Positions 2,159 through 8,919 of a stretch of 64,000 nt of DNA are shown one piece after another. The stretch is from a phage. Every line of letters begins with the position of its first letter. Position 1 is the first letter of the stretch. Location: the sequence record PZ452582.1; one strand, written 5' to 3'. The notes under the pieces are model-generated. The model was not told the origin of the DNA. It made no database searches and saw nothing but the letters and a program-made list of their open reading frames with translations. The translations under genes were made by a program, and so were the position numbers.

Positions 2159-4855
2159 ATGAAAGAATTTTATATCTCTATTGAAACAGTCGGAAATAAC
2201 ATTGTTGAACGTTATATTGATGAAAACGGAAAGGAACGTACTCGTGAAGTAGAATATCTTCCGACTATGTTTAGGCATTGTAAGGAAGAGTCAAAATACA
2301 AAGACATCTATGGTAAAAACTGCGCTCCTCAAAAATTTCCATCAATGAAAGATGCTCGAGATTGGATGAAGCGAATGGAAGACATCGGTCTCGAAGCTCT
2401 CGGTATGAACGATTTTAAACTCGCTTATATCAGTGATACATATGGTTCAGAAATTGTTTATGACCGAAAATTTGTTCGTGTAGCTAACTGTGACATTGAG
2501 GTTACTGGTGATAAATTTCCTGACCCAATGAAAGCTGAATATGAAATTGATGCTATCACTCATTACGATTCAATTGATGATCGTTTTTATGTTTTCGACC
2601 TTTTGAATTCAATGTATGGTTCAGTATCAAAATGGGATGCAAAGTTAGCTGCTAAGCTTGACTGTGAAGGTGGTGATGAAGTTCCTCAAGAAATTCTTGA
2701 CCGAGTAATTTATATGCCATTCGATAACGAGCGTGATATGCTCATGGAATATATCAATCTCTGGGAACAGAAACGACCTGCTATTTTTACTGGTTGGAAT
2801 ATTGAGGGATTTGACGTTCCGTATATCATGAATCGCGTTAAAATGGTTCTCGGTGAACGTAGTATGAAACGCTTCTCTCCAATCGGTCGAGTAAAATCTA
2901 AACTAATTCAAAATATGTACGGTAGCAAAGAAATTTATTCTATTGATGGCGTATCTATTCTTGATTATTTAGATTTGTACAAGAAATTCGCTTTTACTAA
3001 TTTGCCGTCATTCTCTTTGGAATCAGTTGCTCAACATGAAACCAAAAAAGGTAAATTACCATATGATGGCCCTATTAATAAACTTCGTGAGACTAATCAT
3101 CAACGATACATTAGTTATAACATCATTGACGTAGAATCAGTTCAAGCAATTGATAAAATTCGCGGGTTTATCGATCTAGTTTTAAGTATGTCTTATTATG
3201 CTAAAATGCCTTTTTCTGGTGTAATGAGTCCTATTAAAACTTGGGATGCTATTATTTTTAACTCATTGAAAGGTGAACATAAGGTTATTCCTCAACAAGG
3301 TTCGCATGTTAAACAGAGTTTTCCGGGTGCATTTGTGTTTGAACCTAAACCAATTGCTCGTCGATATATTATGAGTTTTGACTTGACGTCTCTGTATCCG
3401 AGCATTATTCGTCAGGTTAACATTAGTCCTGAGACTATTCGTGGTCAGTTTAAAGTTCATCCAATTCATGAATATATCGCAGGAACAGCTCCTAAACCAA
3501 GTGATGAATATTCTTGTTCTCCGAATGGATGGATGTATGATAAGCATCAAGAAGGTATCATTCCAAAGGAAATCGCTAAAGTATTTTTCCAGCGTAAAGA
3601 TTGGAAAAAGAAAATGTTCGCTGAAGAAATGAATGCCGAAGCTATTAAAAAGATTATTATGAAAGGCGCAGGGTCTTGTTCAACTAAACCTGAAGTTGAA
3701 CGATATGTTAAGTTCAGTGATGATTTCTTAAATGAATTATCGAATTACACTGAATCTGTTCTTAATAGTCTGATCGAAGAATGTGAAAAAGCAGCTACAC
3801 TTGCTAACACAAATCAGCTGAACCGTAAAATTCTTATTAACAGTCTTTATGGTGCTCTTGGTAATATTCATTTCCGTTACTATGATTTGCGAAATGCTAC
3901 TGCTATCACAATTTTCGGCCAAGTTGGTATTCAGTGGATTGCTCGTAAAATTAATGAATATCTGAATAAAGTATGCGGAACTAATGGCGAAGATTTCATT
4001 GCAGCAGGTGATACTGATTCGGTATATGTTTGTGTAGATAAAGTTATTGAAAAAGTTGGTCTTGACCGATTCAAAGAGCAGAACGATTTAGTTGAATTCA
4101 TGAATCAGTTCGGTAAGAAAAAAATGGAACCGATGATTGATGTTGCATATCGTGAGTTATGTGATTATATGAATAACCGCGAGCATCTGATGCATATGGA
4201 CCGTGAAGCTATTTCTTGCCCTCCGCTTGGTTCAAAGGGTGTCGGTGGATTTTGGAAAGCGAAAAAGCGTTATGCTCTGAACGTTTATGATATGGAAGAT
4301 AAGCGATTTGCTGAACCGCATCTAAAAATCATGGGTATGGAAACTCAGCAAAGTTCAACGCCTAAAGCGGTTCAAGAAGCTCTCGAAGAAAGTATTCGTC
4401 GTATTCTTCAGGAAGGTGAAGAGTCTGTCCAAGAATATTACAAAAACTTCGAGAAAGAATATCGTCAACTTGACTATAAAGTTATTGCTGAAGTAAAAAC
4501 TGCGAACGATATAGCGAAATATGATGATAAAGGTTGGCCAGGATTTAAATGCCCGTTCCATATTCGTGGGGTGCTAACTTATCGTCGAGCTGTTAGCGGT
4601 TTAGGTGTAGCTCCAATTTTGGATGGAAATAAAGTAATGGTTCTTCCATTGCGTGAAGGAAATCCATTTGGTGACAAGTGCATTGCTTGGCCGTCGGGTA
4701 CAGAACTTCCAAAAGAAATTCGTTCTGACGTACTGTCTTGGATTGACTACTCAACTTTGTTCCAAAAATCGTTTGTTAAACCGCTTGCAGGCATGTGTGA
4801 ATCGGCTGGTATGGACTATGAAGAAAAAGCTTCGTTAGACTTCCTGTTTGGCTGA
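2159..4855 (+). CDS. 43: DNA polymerase gp43 (family B)
   Basis: 898 aa, same as T4 gp43; exonuclease and polymerase motifs (DTDS, YGDTDS-like GDTDSVY) visible; synteny. Confidence 0.95.
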   Translation: MKEFYISIETVGNNIVERYIDENGKERTREVEYLPTMFRHCKEESKYKDIYGKNCAPQKFPSMKDARDWMKRMEDIGLEALGMNDFKLAYISDTYGSEIVYDRKFVRVANCDIEVTGDKFPDPMKAEYEIDAITHYDSIDDRFYVFDLLNSMYGSVSKWDAKLAAKLDCEGGDEVPQEILDRVIYMPFDNERDMLMEYINLWEQKRPAIFTGWNIEGFDVPYIMNRVKMVLGERSMKRFSPIGRVKSKLIQNMYGSKEIYSIDGVSILDYLDLYKKFAFTNLPSFSLESVAQHETKKGKLPYDGPINKLRETNHQRYISYNIIDVESVQAIDKIRGFIDLVLSMSYYAKMPFSGVMSPIKTWDAIIFNSLKGEHKVIPQQGSHVKQSFPGAFVFEPKPIARRYIMSFDLTSLYPSIIRQVNISPETIRGQFKVHPIHEYIAGTAPKPSDEYSCSPNGWMYDKHQEGIIPKEIAKVFFQRKDWKKKMFAEEMNAEAIKKIIMKGAGSCSTKPEVERYVKFSDDFLNELSNYTESVLNSLIEECEKAATLANTNQLNRKILINSLYGALGNIHFRYYDLRNATAITIFGQVGIQWIARKINEYLNKVCGTNGEDFIAAGDTDSVYVCVDKVIEKVGLDRFKEQNDLVEFMNQFGKKKMEPMIDVAYRELCDYMNNREHLMHMDREAISCPPLGSKGVGGFWKAKKRYALNVYDMEDKRFAEPHLKIMGMETQQSSTPKAVQEALEESIRRILQEGEESVQEYYKNFEKEYRQLDYKVIAEVKTANDIAKYDDKGWPGFKCPFHIRGVLTYRRAVSGLGVAPILDGNKVMVLPLREGNPFGDKCIAWPSGTELPKEIRSDVLSWIDYSTLFQKSFVKPLAGMCESAGMDYEEKASLDFLFG

Positions 4856-4867
4856 TAGAATAAATCT

Positions 4868-4890
4868 AGGGACCTCCGGGTCCCTTTTTC
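4868..4890 (+). terminator. Rho-independent terminator (AGGGACC-TCCG-GGTCCCT, T5)
   Basis: 7-bp stem followed by TTTTT just after gp43 stop. Confidence 0.7.
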
Positions 4891-4971
4891 ATACAAGTAA
4901 TATAAATCTATACTTATGAAAAACAGATGATTCTGGACCTTTAGAATTCCCTAAAAAATTTTCACAAAACT

Positions 4972-5001
4972 GTTTACAAGACTGTTCTTCCATGGTACTA
5001 T
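4972..5001 (+). promoter_or_regulatory. T4-type early promoter (GTTTAC -35, TGGTACTAT extended -10)
   Basis: GTTTAC at 4972-4977, 18-nt spacer, TACTAT at 4996-5001; same cassette recurs at several other sites. Confidence 0.6.
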
Positions 5002-5038
5002 ACAACTATCAACTACTGATACAGATTTGGAGAATAAA

Positions 5039-5275
5039 ATGAAAATTGTTATGGGATGCTTAGCAGTTTGTTTAGTTGCATTAGCAGCAGTTCCATTTGT
5101 TAGTGTTGAAAATGATACTCAACCTGCGATTGAATCTAGCACCGTTATTCACACTAATGGTAAAATATCAGTTAAAATTGATGATAATCTTCATGTGAAT
5201 ACAAATGGATCTTTAGGTGTGCAAATGGGTAATACCTGCATAAGCACTACTGGAGTAATTACTACTTGCATTTGA
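5039..5275 (+). CDS. Small secreted protein (signal peptide), function unknown
   Basis: GGAGA RBS 5 nt upstream of ATG; N-terminal hydrophobic signal MKIVMGCLAVCLVALAAVPF. Confidence 0.55.
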   Translation: MKIVMGCLAVCLVALAAVPFVSVENDTQPAIESSTVIHTNGKISVKIDDNLHVNTNGSLGVQMGNTCISTTGVITTCI

Positions 5276-5285
5276 GGAAATTATT

Positions 5286-5666
5286 ATGAAAATCGCTATT
5301 TTGGTTATTGCATTAGGTCTTACTGGTTGTGTAGCTCAAGGACCGGTAGTAAATCAGTCTGATGTAGGAAAAATTGTAAACTGTTCAAGCAAATTTTATA
5401 ATCCTAATGTCAAGTGTTATAAAGAAGCTCCAAAGCAAACAGTAGAACAAATGCAGGCGAATTTTGACGAAGCTATTCGTCCAGATGAATCTGCTCAAGC
5501 ATATCGTAATTCGGATGTAATTACACGCGAAGAAAAAATTGAAAATTACTGCGCCGAGCTTTGGGCTAATTGGGCTAATAATTACCAATGGCGTACTGGT
5601 AAAAATGCTCCGATGGAGTATGTAGTGAATTCTTATAATTCATGTGTAAAAAATTTGACTAAGTGA
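5286..5666 (+). CDS. Putative lipoprotein (LTGC lipobox), function unknown
   Basis: N-terminus MKIAILVIALGLTGC is a type II signal peptide with lipobox cysteine. Confidence 0.55.
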   Translation: MKIAILVIALGLTGCVAQGPVVNQSDVGKIVNCSSKFYNPNVKCYKEAPKQTVEQMQANFDEAIRPDESAQAYRNSDVITREEKIENYCAELWANWANNYQWRTGKNAPMEYVVNSYNSCVKNLTK

Positions 5667-5673
5667 GGAAAAT

Positions 5674-5988
5674 ATGGAAACTTTAGTAGCAGGTTCAATT
5701 TTTATGGTTTTAGTTTCAGGTGTGTTGGCTATTATTATATACATGCTTCCATGGTTTATTGCTTTGATGCGTGGGTCAAAATCGACAGTAGGAATCTTTT
5801 TCACATCTTTACTGTTTAACTGGTCAATTATTGGTTGGTTTATTACATTTATTTGGTCAATTGCGGGTGAAACTAAAAAGTCTGCACAACCAAATCAGGT
5901 AATTATCATCAGAGAGAGAAGGAATGAAAAGCAAAATTATAGCAGTGTTGCTTTTAATCTTGATGATTATAATAAGTATATACTATAG
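5674..5988 (+). CDS. imm: Imm-like superinfection immunity membrane protein
   Basis: Two predicted TM helices; sits between 43 and 42 where T4 imm lies; 104 aa, whereas T4 Imm is recalled as 83 aa, so the end is uncertain. Confidence 0.55.
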   Translation: METLVAGSIFMVLVSGVLAIIIYMLPWFIALMRGSKSTVGIFFTSLLFNWSIIGWFITFIWSIAGETKKSAQPNQVIIIRERRNEKQNYSSVAFNLDDYNKYIL

Positions 5989-6073
5989 TGTAACGGTTCC
6001 TCTTATGATTCCGACTATTATTTTAGGTTGGAGCTTATTACTGTTACAAGTTAAATATGAATGTATCAATTGA
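5924..6073 (+). CDS. Small hydrophobic membrane protein (49 aa), out-of-frame overlap with imm-like ORF
   Basis: ATG preceded by GAGAAGGA; strongly hydrophobic MKSKIIAVLLLILMIIIS; below the 60-aa track cutoff. Confidence 0.35.
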   Translation: MKSKIIAVLLLILMIIISIYYSVTVPLMIPTIILGWSLLLLQVKYECIN

Positions 6074-6080
6074 GGTTTAA

Positions 6081-6821
6081 ATGATTAGTGACTCTATGAC
6101 AGTTGAAGAAATCCGTCTTCATTTGGGGCTTGCATTAAAAGAAAAAGATTTCGTAGTTGATAAAACCGGTGTTAAAACTATTGAAATTATTGGCGCATCA
6201 TTTGTAGCAGATGAACCGTTTATTTTTGGTGCTCTTAATGATGAATACATTCAGCGTGAACTTGAATGGTATAAATCTAAGAGCTTGTTCGTTAAAGATA
6301 TTCCAGGTGAAACACCGAAGATTTGGCAACAAGTAGCATCTTCTAAAGGCGAAATTAACTCGAACTATGGTTGGGCTATTTGGTCAGAAGATAACTATGC
6401 CCAGTATGATATGTGTTTAGCTGAACTTGGTCAAAATCCTGATTCTCGACGTGGTATCATGATTTATACTCGTCCATCCATGCAATTTGACTACAATAAA
6501 GATGGTATGTCAGATTTCATGTGTACTAATACAGTACAGTACCTGATTCGTGATAAGAAAGTCAATGCAGTAGTAAGCATGCGCTCAAATGACGTGGTCT
6601 TCGGATTCCGTAATGATTATGCATGGCAAAAATACGTATTAGATAAATTAGTATCTGATTTGAATGCCGGCGATTCATCTCGTCAGTATAAAGCAGGTTC
6701 TATTATATGGAATGTCGGAAGTCTTCATGTATATTCTCGTCATTTTTACTTGGTTGATCATTGGTGGAATACTGGCGAAACTCATATTGTGAAAAAAGAC
6801 TATAAAGGTGAGTGGAAATGA
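6081..6821 (+). CDS. 42: dCMP hydroxymethylase gp42
   Basis: 246 aa, same as T4 gp42; thymidylate-synthase-like fold sequence recognised. Confidence 0.92.
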   Translation: MISDSMTVEEIRLHLGLALKEKDFVVDKTGVKTIEIIGASFVADEPFIFGALNDEYIQRELEWYKSKSLFVKDIPGETPKIWQQVASSKGEINSNYGWAIWSEDNYAQYDMCLAELGQNPDSRRGIMIYTRPSMQFDYNKDGMSDFMCTNTVQYLIRDKKVNAVVSMRSNDVVFGFRNDYAWQKYVLDKLVSDLNAGDSSRQYKAGSIIWNVGSLHVYSRHFYLVDHWWNTGETHIVKKDYKGEWK

Positions 6822-7660
6822 TTCAATTCGTAATTCCAAGTTATCAGCGTGTCAGGGCAGTTTCTGCCCTTGATATGTTTCCGACTGATTATGAACCGCA
6901 TATTGTAGTGCGTGAACATGAAGAAAAAGCTTATCATGACGCTTATGGGTCTAGAGCTAAAATTATAACTATTCCTGATGATGTAAACGGAATTGCCGGT
7001 ACTCGTAAAGCAATTACCGATATATATGCAGGTCAACGAATCTGGATGATTGACGATGATACTACTATTCGTATGAGTTCAATGCGAAAAAGAGATGATC
7101 GTCGTTGCGTAGATAAAGTCAATCAATTGACTCGTGAACAGTTCTATGAATTGATTCAATATGTTGAGGATGCCATGGATTGCGGGTATTATCATGGCCA
7201 TGCTCGTCTACCTATTTTTAAAATTACTTCATCTTGGGGTAATTATCGTGAAAATTCATATGGATTCACGAATACATGGTATGACCTCGGAAAACTTACG
7301 ACAGAACAAATTGGGTATGGAAAAATTGATTTATGCGAAGATATGTATGCATTTCTCAATTTAATTAATCAAGGTTATCCGCATTTGGCCTTGTTCAAAT
7401 ATCTAGTTGTATCTGGAAAAGCACAAGCTCCTGGCGGGTGCAGTTCAATTCGTAGTAATTCTAAACATAATAGAGCGCTTGAGCAGATTAATAGAGAGTT
7501 TCCAGAGCAAGCTCGTTGGAAAACTTCTAATATTGAAAAACGAAAATCGTTGGGTGAAGAAGACGAACCATTAAAGGTTCTTCGCATGTGCGTTTCACGT
7601 AAAGAAAAATCAGAAGCATTTCATAAGTTTAATGCTATTCATCCAATAGCAGTTGATTAA
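6818..7660 (+). CDS. Putative DNA-modifying glycosyltransferase at the beta-gt locus (GT-A-like, DxD)
   Basis: ATGA overlap with gene 42 stop; WMIDDDTT motif; does not resemble remembered T4 beta-gt (351 aa); could be a T2/T6-type beta-alpha glucosyltransferase. Confidence 0.5.
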   Translation: MIQFVIPSYQRVRAVSALDMFPTDYEPHIVVREHEEKAYHDAYGSRAKIITIPDDVNGIAGTRKAITDIYAGQRIWMIDDDTTIRMSSMRKRDDRRCVDKVNQLTREQFYELIQYVEDAMDCGYYHGHARLPIFKITSSWGNYRENSYGFTNTWYDLGKLTTEQIGYGKIDLCEDMYAFLNLINQGYPHLALFKYLVVSGKAQAPGGCSSIRSNSKHNRALEQINREFPEQARWKTSNIEKRKSLGEEDEPLKVLRMCVSRKEKSEAFHKFNAIHPIAVD

Positions 7661-7737: not shown

Positions 7738-8919
7738 ATGTCTATTGCAGATTTAAAATCCCGTTTGATTAAAGCTTCCACTTCTAAAATGACTGCTGAA
7801 CTGACTACATCTAAATTCTTTAATGAAAAGGATGTAATTCGTACAAAAATTCCAATGCTTAATATTGCTATTTCTGGTGCGATTGATGGCGGCATGCAGT
7901 CTGGTTTAACTATTTTCGCAGGGCCTTCTAAACACTTTAAATCAAATATGTCTTTGACTATGGTTGCGGCATATTTGAACAAATATCCTGACGCGGTTTG
8001 TCTATTCTATGATAGTGAATTTGGTATTACTCCAGCTTATTTGCGATCCATGGGAGTTGACCCGGAACGAGTAATTCATACGCCGATTCAGTCAGTTGAA
8101 CAGCTGAAAATTGATATGGTGAACCAGCTTGAAGCTATTGAGCGTGGTGAAAAGGTTATTGTATTCATCGACTCAATTGGTAATATGGCTTCTAAGAAAG
8201 AAACGGAAGATGCCTTGAATGAAAAATCTGTGGCAGATATGACTCGTGCTAAATCACTGAAGTCATTATTCCGTATTGTTACTCCTTACTTTAGCATTAA
8301 AAATATTCCATGTGTTGCGGTTAACCATACAATTGAAACAATTGAAATGTTTAGTAAAACCGTGATGACAGGTGGTACAGGCGTAATGTATTCGGCTGAT
8401 ACTGTATTCATTATCGGTAAGCGTCAGATTAAAGATGGTTCTGATCTTCAGGGGTATCAATTTGTTCTAAATGTAGAAAAATCTCGTACCGTTAAAGAAA
8501 AAAGTAAATTCTTTATTGATGTTAAATTTGACGGTGGTATCGATCCTTATTCTGGATTGTTAGATATGGCTCTAGAATTAGGATTTGTAGTAAAACCTAA
8601 AAATGGTTGGTATGCTCGTGAATTTCTTGACGAAGAAACCGGCGAGATGATTCGCGAAGAAAAATCTTGGCGTGCAAAAGATACTAACTGCACTACATTC
8701 TGGGGTCCTTTATTTAAGCATCAACCATTCCGAGATGCTATTAAGCGTGCTTATCAGTTAGGTGCTATTGATAGTAATGAAATTGTTGAAGCGGAAGTTG
8801 ATGAATTAATTAACTCAAAGGTTGAAAAATTTAAATCCTCAGAAAGTAAAAGTAAATCAGCAGCTGATTTAGAAACTGACCTCGAGCAGTTAAGTGATAT
8901 GGAAGAATTTAATGAATAA
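7738..8919 (+). CDS. uvsX: UvsX recombinase (RecA/Rad51 family)
   Basis: 393 aa; Walker A GPSKHFKS; near-identical to remembered T4 UvsX. Confidence 0.93.
   Translation: MSIADLKSRLIKASTSKMTAELTTSKFFNEKDVIRTKIPMLNIAISGAIDGGMQSGLTIFAGPSKHFKSNMSLTMVAAYLNKYPDAVCLFYDSEFGITPAYLRSMGVDPERVIHTPIQSVEQLKIDMVNQLEAIERGEKVIVFIDSIGNMASKKETEDALNEKSVADMTRAKSLKSLFRIVTPYFSIKNIPCVAVNHTIETIEMFSKTVMTGGTGVMYSADTVFIIGKRQIKDGSDLQGYQFVLNVEKSRTVKEKSKFFIDVKFDGGIDPYSGLLDMALELGFVVKPKNGWYAREFLDEETGEMIREEKSWRAKDTNCTTFWGPLFKHQPFRDAIKRAYQLGAIDSNEIVEAEVDELINSKVEKFKSSESKSKSAADLETDLEQLSDMEEFNE

Follow-up and report, generated by a model that had tools for sequence, protein, structure and literature searches.

Here, we show that a short gene cluster in a 64,000-nucleotide stretch of phage DNA (sequence record PZ452582.1; hereafter the window) is an already known and ordinary four-gene imm cluster of a T4-like phage, with one exception, a two-base frameshift in imm that is private to this sequence. 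The interval 5039–6073 can with considerable confidence be identified as the early transcription unit for immunity to superinfection (imm) of a T2/T6-like Tequatrovirus, comprising ORF1, imm.1, imm, and 42.1. The locus is ordinary because the same cluster recurs in hundreds of sequenced relatives: the window is that of a Tequatrovirus with approximately 98% identity to deposited phages, the interval matches 519 phage records, mostly at 95–99% identity, and the four genes, two of which are named T4 genes, are present at 97% identity or more in hundreds of deposited Tequatrovirus genomes. Little in the sequence is new.

The cluster is flanked upstream by gene 43 (2159–4855) and downstream by gene 42 (6081–6821). 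A terminator scan identified an intrinsic terminator after gene 43 (4868–4885, + strand), consisting of AGGGACCTCCGGGTCCCT and a T run, and this hairpin is annotated likewise in NR1 and DalCa. An early-promoter-like site at 4973–5001 (+ strand; TTTACA, a 17-nt spacer, and TACTAT with a TG extension) was found by a promoter scan as a consensus match only; T4 and NR1 carry the promoter block GTTTACAAGACTGTTCTTCCATGGTACTATACAAC unchanged, and outgroup lineages carry similar promoter-plus-leader blocks upstream of imm.1. The terminator would end gene 43, after which an early promoter of the T4 type would drive ORF1, imm.1, imm, and 42.1, running straight into gene 42. Each of the four starts is preceded by a Shine-Dalgarno motif, with intergenic gaps of 7–10 nt. 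All four ORFs match a PHROG family (E≤1e-25), and dN/dS is below 0.4 in every gene in pairwise comparisons of diverged alleles (range 0–0.36). Judged from sequence, the four ORFs are real genes and not chance ORFs, because they are conserved across diverged alleles with low dN/dS and have PHROG matches.

Similar to the window, T4 carries an imm locus (NC_000866, T4p046 and T4p045) with the same position, order, strand, terminator, and promoter block. The window differs by a 247-bp ORF1 insertion at the imm.1 start codon and by an additional AG, which makes Imm 104 aa long. Beyond gene 42, the window encodes a T2/T6-type beta-glucosyl-HMC-alpha-glucosyltransferase, whereas T4 has beta-gt and segA. 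The first-pass annotation had described four envelope-targeted ORFs between genes 43 and 42, and all four are present with the coordinates it assigned; sequence-level features (a signal stretch, a lipobox, and apolar segments) agree with envelope targeting of each product, the signal-peptide and lipoprotein calls being rule-based sequence checks. Its picture of T4, with imm and at most one small ORF at this place, was partly wrong, as NC_000866 annotates both imm.1 and imm, and the 49-aa ORF is present unannotated. The secreted proteins that it regarded as additional to T4 therefore reduce to ORF1 alone, the lipoprotein and the 49-aa ORF both being in T4.

The third gene, imm (ORF3; 5674–5988, + strand), encodes the superinfection immunity protein, here of 104 aa with a frameshifted C-terminal tail. 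That this is the imm locus, with ORF3 encoding Imm, had been proposed from the letters and is confirmed by orthology with T4 and by a match to Pfam Imm_superinfect (PF14373; 57.5 bits, gathering threshold 27.9, E=1.2e-15, profile positions 1–42 of 42), to which a match to phrog_1039, "immunity to superinfection" (8e-33), can be added. The protein has two long apolar stretches; its residues 1–81 equal those of T4 Imm except for A44T, the flanking genes are the same, and dN/dS for imm is approximately 0.1. The window and T4 thus encode the same protein, in which R33 (...ALMR33GSK...) and W50 (...LLFNW50SII...) are conserved, and differ in the tail, where 23 residues in the window stand for KE in T4. 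This difference stems from an (AG)4 run at 5911–5918 (+ strand), one repeat unit longer than the (AG)3 of T4, NR1, and every other record. With the added AG, translation changes frame, such that ...IIIRERRNEKQNYSSVAFNLDDYNKYIL replaces ...IIIREKE, giving 104 aa in place of 83 aa. The native 83-aa length, the ...VIIIRE(K/E) end, and the ATGA coupling to the next ORF are consequently all missing from the window. The overlap of ORF3 and ORF4 pointed out in the first-pass annotation is real here (65 nt), but it is created by the window-private 2-nt insertion and is not a designed feature; the two genes share only the 4 nt ATGA in T4, in NR1, and at all further loci inspected.

Is the longer Imm genuine? 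The AG expansion occurs in 0 of 400 matching phage records, none of which reaches 99% identity over positions 5876–5955 (the best match, at 97.5% identity, equals the 2-nt gap), and exact matches in IMG/VR comprise four without the AG insertion and none with it. Two origins come into question, an error in sequencing or assembly and a recent mutation private to this sequence. As the sequence stands, the expansion gives Imm a 21-aa longer tail and breaks its stop/start coupling with 42.1. The 104-aa protein might be a functional variant, produced by a real mutation that alters the tail and down-regulates or uncouples 42.1, a reading to which we give somewhat less than an even chance. Growth of (AG)3 to (AG)4 is simple dinucleotide-repeat slippage and hence a natural event, residues 1–81 including R33 and W50 are intact, and the start codon and Shine-Dalgarno sequence of 42.1 are unaffected. 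However, indels in short repeats are also well known as artefacts of sequencing and assembly, phage records and IMG/VR contigs lack this one, and Tequatrovirus, Mosigvirus, L019, and L021 have all kept the ...VIIIRE(K/E) ending, which suggests constraint on the tail. The frameshift makes caution advisable in annotating or using this allele.

Directly upstream lies imm.1 (ORF2; 5286–5666, + strand), the T4 gene of that name, which encodes a predicted lipoprotein of 126 aa. It belongs to Pfam DUF5481 (PF17578; 239 bits, gathering threshold 27, E 5.4e-72), is 99% identical to T4 Imm.1, and has a dN/dS of 0–0.02. Its lipobox, LTGC within ILVIALGLTGC, with the cysteine at position 15 and Val at +2, conforms to PROSITE rule PS51257 (K/R in residues 1–7, an uncharged h-region, [LIVMFWSTAG](2)-[LIVMFYSTAGCQ]-[AGS]-C, and Cys at positions 15–35). 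Five of seven Imm.1 sequences conform to this rule (window, T4, Mosigvirus, P0022, and P0023); the other two, P0019 and P0020, have AHA-type signal peptides instead of a lipobox. Four further cysteines are found at positions 33, 44, 89, and 120, and in the alignment of homologues Cys33 and Cys44 co-occur or are both missing, while Cys89 and Cys120 are invariant. These features suggest that Imm.1 would be exported, lipid-modified at Cys15, sorted to the outer membrane, because no Asp occupies +2, and stabilised by disulfides in the periplasm. An AF2 model from a 5-sequence alignment reached an overall pLDDT of 62, and confidence was confined to the helical C-terminal half (residues 53–125, pLDDT 70–86). 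A Foldseek search of this model against the PDB returned no match with E below 4, PDB profile searches with Imm.1 and with ORF1 gave nothing below E=0.2, and NCBIfam and PADLOC yielded only sub-threshold noise; no sequence or fold match to a solved structure or defence family was significant, and the searches gave no fold or family lead for gp42.1 either. The RefSeq label "iduronate sulfatase" for imm.1 was supported by none of these searches. Our literature searches, in which the term "imm.1" was confounded by journal abbreviations, found no papers on DUF5481 and no paper or experiment on imm.1, gp42.1, or ORF1.

A search of 1.84 billion proteins places DUF5481 in only 6 representative clusters. 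All six lineages examined have imm.1 directly before imm, and the pair occurs in three genome contexts: between genes 43 and 42 in Tequatrovirus, between dmd and spackle in Mosigvirus, and downstream of frd.3 in L021. The same adjacency is found in L011/L012, L019, and L022. Dhakavirus JS10 has imm without imm.1, and Mosigvirus, L011, and L022 have imm.1–imm without 42.1, indicating that these partnerships are facultative.

The first gene of the cluster, ORF1 (phrog_4189; 5039–5275, + strand), is absent from T4 and encodes a secreted or membrane-anchored protein of 78 aa from its ATG; the mechanical ORF begins at a TTG at position 5027. The protein begins with a predicted signal peptide and continues through a variable middle to a conserved C-terminal LGVQxGNTC(I/V)STTGVITTCI that contains a Cys67/Cys77 pair. 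The hydrophobic N-terminal stretch (residues 1–25) conforms to a rule for Sec signals (positive n-region, h-region of at least 10 hydrophobic residues, and small residues at −3 and −1), with K2, a hydrophobic stretch at 3–23, and A14-L15-A16 followed by A17. The A-L-A site is kept in eight of ten aligned alleles and reads A-L-V in P0006 and P0009; as far as its sequence tells, ORF1 may also be an uncleaved signal anchor. We considered a lipoprotein and rejected this for the window allele, in which the PS51257 lipobox is absent. Only the HY01-type allele gains LAAC with Cys18, through a 7-aa duplication, and this gain explains why its UniRef name is "Lipoprotein". The AF2 model (pLDDT 52) was too poor for a fold search, and no Pfam family matches. 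The C-terminal Cys-x9-Cys-Ile may bear a resemblance to the disulfide loops found at the C-terminus of class IIa microcins. ORF1 would be a Sec-exported, beta-rich, disulfide-containing small protein, a polymorphic accessory gene with the weakest link to exclusion.

How did ORF1 enter the locus? Compared with T4, it amounts to a clean 247-bp indel that lies at the start codon of imm.1 and is flanked by the 8-bp repeat ATGAAAAT. This repeat first led us to suppose that T4 had lost ORF1 by deletion from an ancestor carrying it, which now seems the less likely course. The leader ttggagaat directly precedes imm.1 in T4 and four outgroup lineages and precedes ORF1 in the window, where imm.1 has a second ribosome-binding site. 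Because the four outgroup lineages share the leader–imm.1 junction of T4, insertion of ORF1 in a subset of Tequatroviruses is the more parsimonious reading of these sequences. ORF1 is not a rarity: it is found in approximately 322–326 phage records, approximately 64% of Tequatrovirus records, and a deep homologue search recovered it from close Tequatrovirus relatives only, among which its presence is polymorphic. Its dN/dS is 0.19–0.36, and only in-frame indels are tolerated. At least three versions of the slot upstream of imm.1 exist: it is empty in T4, holds ORF1, or holds an unrelated 83-aa cytoplasmic gene (T2 and RB51). With a slot so variable, position alone says little on ORF1, and a role for it in exclusion is weakened.

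What could the neighbours of imm contribute to exclusion? Imm is an inner-membrane protein with its N-terminus in the periplasm, and it binds the tape-measure protein gp29 of the incoming phage at a helical-bundle domain (bioRxiv 10.64898/2026.03.06.709160). This binding blocks formation of the inner-membrane conduit, such that superinfecting DNA is not delivered. The R33A and W50A mutants are inactive, and plasmid-borne Imm alone excludes T4 (bioRxiv 10.64898/2026.03.06.709160); hence no neighbour is needed for the core activity of Imm. The first-pass annotation had put the secreted proteins forward as candidate periplasmic exclusion or anti-defence factors, a proposal that the conserved adjacency to imm supports for imm.1. 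The gene order points to a periplasmic partner role of imm.1 in exclusion: as imm.1 is always directly upstream of imm, it most likely serves the same process on the periplasmic side. For instance, Imm.1 might intercept or hold parts of the tail tip or tape measure on their way to the inner membrane, or alternatively might limit envelope damage from secondary adsorption. A more elaborate model, which we consider speculative and on balance unlikely, would make Imm.1 a dedicated periplasmic partner of Imm that forms with gp42.1 a conserved trans-envelope exclusion module, and ORF1 a fast-evolving secreted specificity or decoy factor. With the Imm target, the tape measure gp29, now identified, the strict imm.1–imm adjacency offers a cheap and testable lead.

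A competing explanation, possible though appreciably short of probable, is that the genes adjoining imm are unrelated "moron" genes, lying in a plastic region and served by a common early promoter, that take no part in Imm-type exclusion. ORF1 particularly, and possibly imm.1 and 42.1 as well, would then have other envelope roles, such as tuning of lysis inhibition, resistance to lysis from without, countering of host envelope-based defences, or receptor masking. The changing content of the slot upstream of imm.1, the restriction of ORF1 to some Tequatroviruses, the sufficiency of Imm alone, and the occurrence of imm without imm.1 in JS10 all speak for this explanation. However, imm.1 is never apart from imm in the recovered lineages even though the pair has moved to two other contexts, one of which adjoins spackle, the other exclusion gene. 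In addition, homologues of 42.1 directly follow imm in four lineages (Tequatrovirus, JS10, L019, and L021), often with the ATGA overlap.

A periplasmic partner role of Imm.1 can be set beside known exclusion systems. T4 Spackle (gp61.3) is a periplasmic inhibitor of the gp5 tail lysozyme; it is small, early, and exported by a signal peptide, as Imm.1 and ORF1 are predicted to be, and the Mosigvirus gene order is imm.1, imm, sp. The two proteins nonetheless differ: Imm.1 has no sequence or fold similarity to Spackle, which is soluble, whereas Imm.1 is predicted to be lipid-anchored in most lineages. Llp of T5 and Cor of phi80 and N15 are small, early phage outer-membrane lipoproteins that block receptors and so prevent superinfection. 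By analogy, a role of this kind would be possible for a lipoprotein adjoining imm; we detected no homology between these proteins and Imm.1, and the two Imm.1 lineages that lack a lipid anchor argue against a mechanism that needs outer-membrane anchoring beside the receptor.

Finally, the last gene of the cluster, ORF4 (phrog_3610; 5924–6073, + strand), is gp42.1 in RB51 and encodes a 49-aa hydrophobic microprotein of two segments (a hairpin), with a conserved C-terminal motif, P-x-M-I-P-T ... Q-x-K-Y/F-x-C-I/F-N. We propose that gp42.1 is a two-helix inner-membrane microprotein, normally coupled translationally to imm via ATGA, and probably an accessory or stabilising partner. It has no Pfam match, and its dN/dS is 0.12–0.25. 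That ORF1 and/or ORF4 are chance ORFs in AT-rich intergenic DNA is very improbable: both are short, lack a Pfam family, and are missing from the T4 reference annotation, and the ORF1 model is of low confidence, yet neither is interrupted in alleles whose dS reaches 0.28–0.42, with dN/dS of 0.12–0.36, ORF1 indels are in-frame only, ORF4 homologues in four genera share the C-terminal motif, and both have PHROG families (E 1e-26 to 1e-30) and proper Shine-Dalgarno sequences. T4 encodes ORF4 with one amino-acid difference, and its reference record NC_000866 thus omits a conserved 49-aa gene, 42.1.

The four small ORFs that the first-pass annotation had placed between gene 43 (DNA polymerase, 2159-4855) and gene 42 (dCMP hydroxymethylase, 6081-6821) are present at exactly the coordinates claimed, and all four are genes: Nei-Gojobori comparison of the window with six other alleles gave dN/dS values of 0.19-0.36 for ORF1 (dS up to 0.42), 0-0.02 for imm.1, about 0.1 for imm and 0.12-0.25 for ORF4. 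Gaps between the packed ORFs measure 10 and 7 nt, each of the four has a Shine-Dalgarno motif, and upstream lie a terminator hairpin (4868-4885) and a promoter-like site (4973-5001) within a block identical to T4's. The statement that T4 has only imm and perhaps one small ORF here was inaccurate, because T4 encodes imm.1, imm and ORF4, three of the four, leaving only ORF1 as extra. The observation of the locus holds, and its interpretation as a set of envelope-targeted candidate exclusion or anti-defence factors is supported in part only. The phage is T4-like, with uvsX at 7738-8919; several Tequatroviruses are ~98% identical to its first 12 kb and none is identical; the locus itself was known before and stands in many database records. 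Two modest items are left from it: a private frameshift in imm, and a clean case from synteny, open to testing, for grouping Imm.1 and gp42.1 with Imm.

ORF2 (5286-5666) is T4 gene imm.1 (Pfam DUF5481 at 5e-72; 99% identical to T4 Imm.1), found in 502 records at an amino-acid identity of at least 95% and in 155 Mosigvirus records at ~33%. When 1.84 billion representatives were searched exhaustively with HMMER, only six clusters emerged. Wherever a homologue was located, imm lies directly 3' of it: between genes 43 and 42 in Tequatrovirus, in the metagenomic T4-like relatives L011, L012 and L022 and in lineage L019, downstream of frd.3 in lineage L021, and in the order dmd, imm.1, imm, spackle in Mosigvirus. 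Because this synteny is strict, we infer that Imm.1 may be an exported accessory in Imm's exclusion process that carries disulfide bonds and in most cases is tethered to the outer membrane. In the RB69-like Mosigvirus phages PhAPEC2 and ST0 (L009 and L010, both 2495-3530), imm.1 and imm adjoin spackle (dmd, imm.1, imm, sp, 61.2), so that every known or suspected exclusion gene sits in one cluster, with the imm.1-imm pair far away from genes 43 and 42. L011 (795-1013), L012 (70-288) and L022 (1-41) also carry a small Phage_RB18_ORF43 (Pfam) gene between regA and gene 43.

Window Imm.1 agrees with the PROSITE rule for a lipobox: it has …GLTGC, in which Cys15 is followed by Val at +2. A predicted periplasmic location is conserved and lipid anchoring is not, since two lineages (homologues P0019 and P0020) have an AHA-type signal-peptidase I site in place of the lipobox. 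Cys89 and Cys120 do not vary, and Cys33 and Cys44 come and go as a pair, a pattern that fits predicted periplasmic disulfides. The AF2 model reaches a pLDDT of 62, and 70-86 in the helices at 53-125; it matched no PDB fold with E below 4. No significant match came from NCBIfam or PADLOC, or from PDB sequence profiles for Imm.1 and ORF1, and a literature search found no paper addressing DUF5481. The T4 record NC_000866.4 names imm.1 'iduronate sulfatase', which our searches do not support, DUF5481 being the only significant family for the window's 99%-identical orthologue.

ORF3 (5674-5988) is Imm, scoring 57.5 bits with PF14373, whose cut-off is 27.9. In a 2026 preprint (bioRxiv 10.64898/2026.03.06.709160), Imm and the helical-bundle domain of the tape-measure protein gp29 purify together, and the proposed action of Imm is to keep the inner-membrane conduit from forming; plasmid-borne Imm by itself excludes T4, and the R33A and W50A mutants lose activity. 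The preprint mentions neither imm.1 nor 42.1. This autonomy of Imm, together with the occurrence of imm without imm.1 in Dhakavirus JS10, counts against an essential role for Imm.1. Window Imm retains both R33 and W50, and within residues 1-81 differs from T4 Imm solely by A44T. An (AG)4 tract at 5911-5918 stands where T4, NR1 and every other locus inspected have (AG)3. As a result, Imm ends in …IIIRERRNEKQNYSSVAFNLDDYNKYIL (104 aa) in place of …IIIREKE (83 aa), and the stop/start overlap with 42.1, normally the 4-nt ATGA, is 65 nt long. Among 400 matching phage records the best identity to 5876-5955 is 97.5%, which equals the 2-nt gap, and an exact 34-mer search of IMG/VR gave 0 matches with the insertion versus 4 without it. 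The …VIIIRE(K/E) tail is kept in Mosigvirus, L019 and L021. The frameshift is private to the window, and is either a sequencing artefact or a real mutation.

ORF4 (5924-6073; phrog_3610) is named gp42.1 in the RB51 annotation, and its T4 equivalent has one substitution and the ATGA overlap with imm. Homologues sharing the motif P-x-M-I-P-T…Q-x-K-Y/F-x-C-I/F-N lie directly 3' of imm in JS10, L019 and L021; another occurs in an Erwinia phage without imm, and the gene is absent from Mosigvirus, L011 and L022. The product could be a translationally coupled inner-membrane microprotein partner. This conserved 49-aa gene is missing from the T4 reference annotation (NC_000866.4, 5228-5377 of locus L001, minus strand, between imm and gene 42).

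How did ORF1 (5039-5275; phrog_4189, no Pfam family) come to lie here? In T4 it is missing as one clean gap of 247 bp; the 8-bp repeat ATGAAAAT bounds this gap and supplies the opening bases of ORF1 as well as of imm.1. The leader ttggagaat directly precedes the imm.1 ATG in T4 and four outgroup lineages; in the window it stands ahead of ORF1, and imm.1 is preceded by another ribosome-binding site, gaggaaattatt, as in the T2-type cassette. ORF1 is present in about 322-326 records, an unrelated 83-aa gene without a signal peptide fills the slot in T2, RB51 and ~29 others, and in the remainder the slot is presumably empty, as in T4. The simplest reading of these junctions is that a Tequatrovirus sublineage acquired ORF1 by insertion at the start codon of imm.1, which would be a hot spot of plasticity. 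Alleles diverge by up to ~24% in amino acids, with a variable middle, a nearly invariant C-terminus (LGVQxGNTC(I/V)STTGVITTCI) and indels that are all in frame, namely repeats of DI and, inside the signal peptide, duplications of 7 aa; the AF2 model (pLDDT 52) has a signal helix, then six short strands. ORF1 would be a polymorphic secreted accessory, its link to exclusion the weakest of the neighbours.

The 83-aa gene, RB51ncORF048c (601-852 in both L023, RB51, and L024, T2), has the right-hand junction with imm.1, gaggaaattatt-ATG, in common with the window, and it has Dhakavirus homologues at ~57% identity; its name in T2 record AP018813, 'tail tape measure protein', is implausible for an 83-aa product. 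Tandem 7-aa duplications (…CLVALAx…) occur in ORF1 alleles P0008, P0014 and P0015 and at L007 1126-1383 (window equivalent 5057-5090). In the HY01-type allele the duplication yields a canonical lipobox (LAAC, Cys18), so some alleles are predicted lipoproteins and others, the window's included, are not. Shigella phage CT01 (L008, 1000-1837) is rearranged, with an additional imm.1 5' end (residues 1-32) fused to a middle fragment of ORF1, followed by a duplicated promoter/leader and full imm.1; this looks like a recombination product of phages with and without ORF1. A 38-aa antisense ORF (4889-5005, minus strand) spans the terminator-promoter spacer and overlaps the early promoter; its equivalent in phage a48 is annotated as a hypothetical protein, and it is probably spurious.

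Downstream, a T2/T6-type beta-glucosyl-HMC-alpha-glucosyltransferase (6812-7660; phrog_842 at 3.5e-88, Pfam TAGT), whose GTG start codon lies within the 3' end of gene 42, occupies the position that in T4 is taken by beta-gt and by segA, a homing endonuclease; the phage therefore probably makes gentiobiosyl-HMC DNA, as T2 and T6 do.
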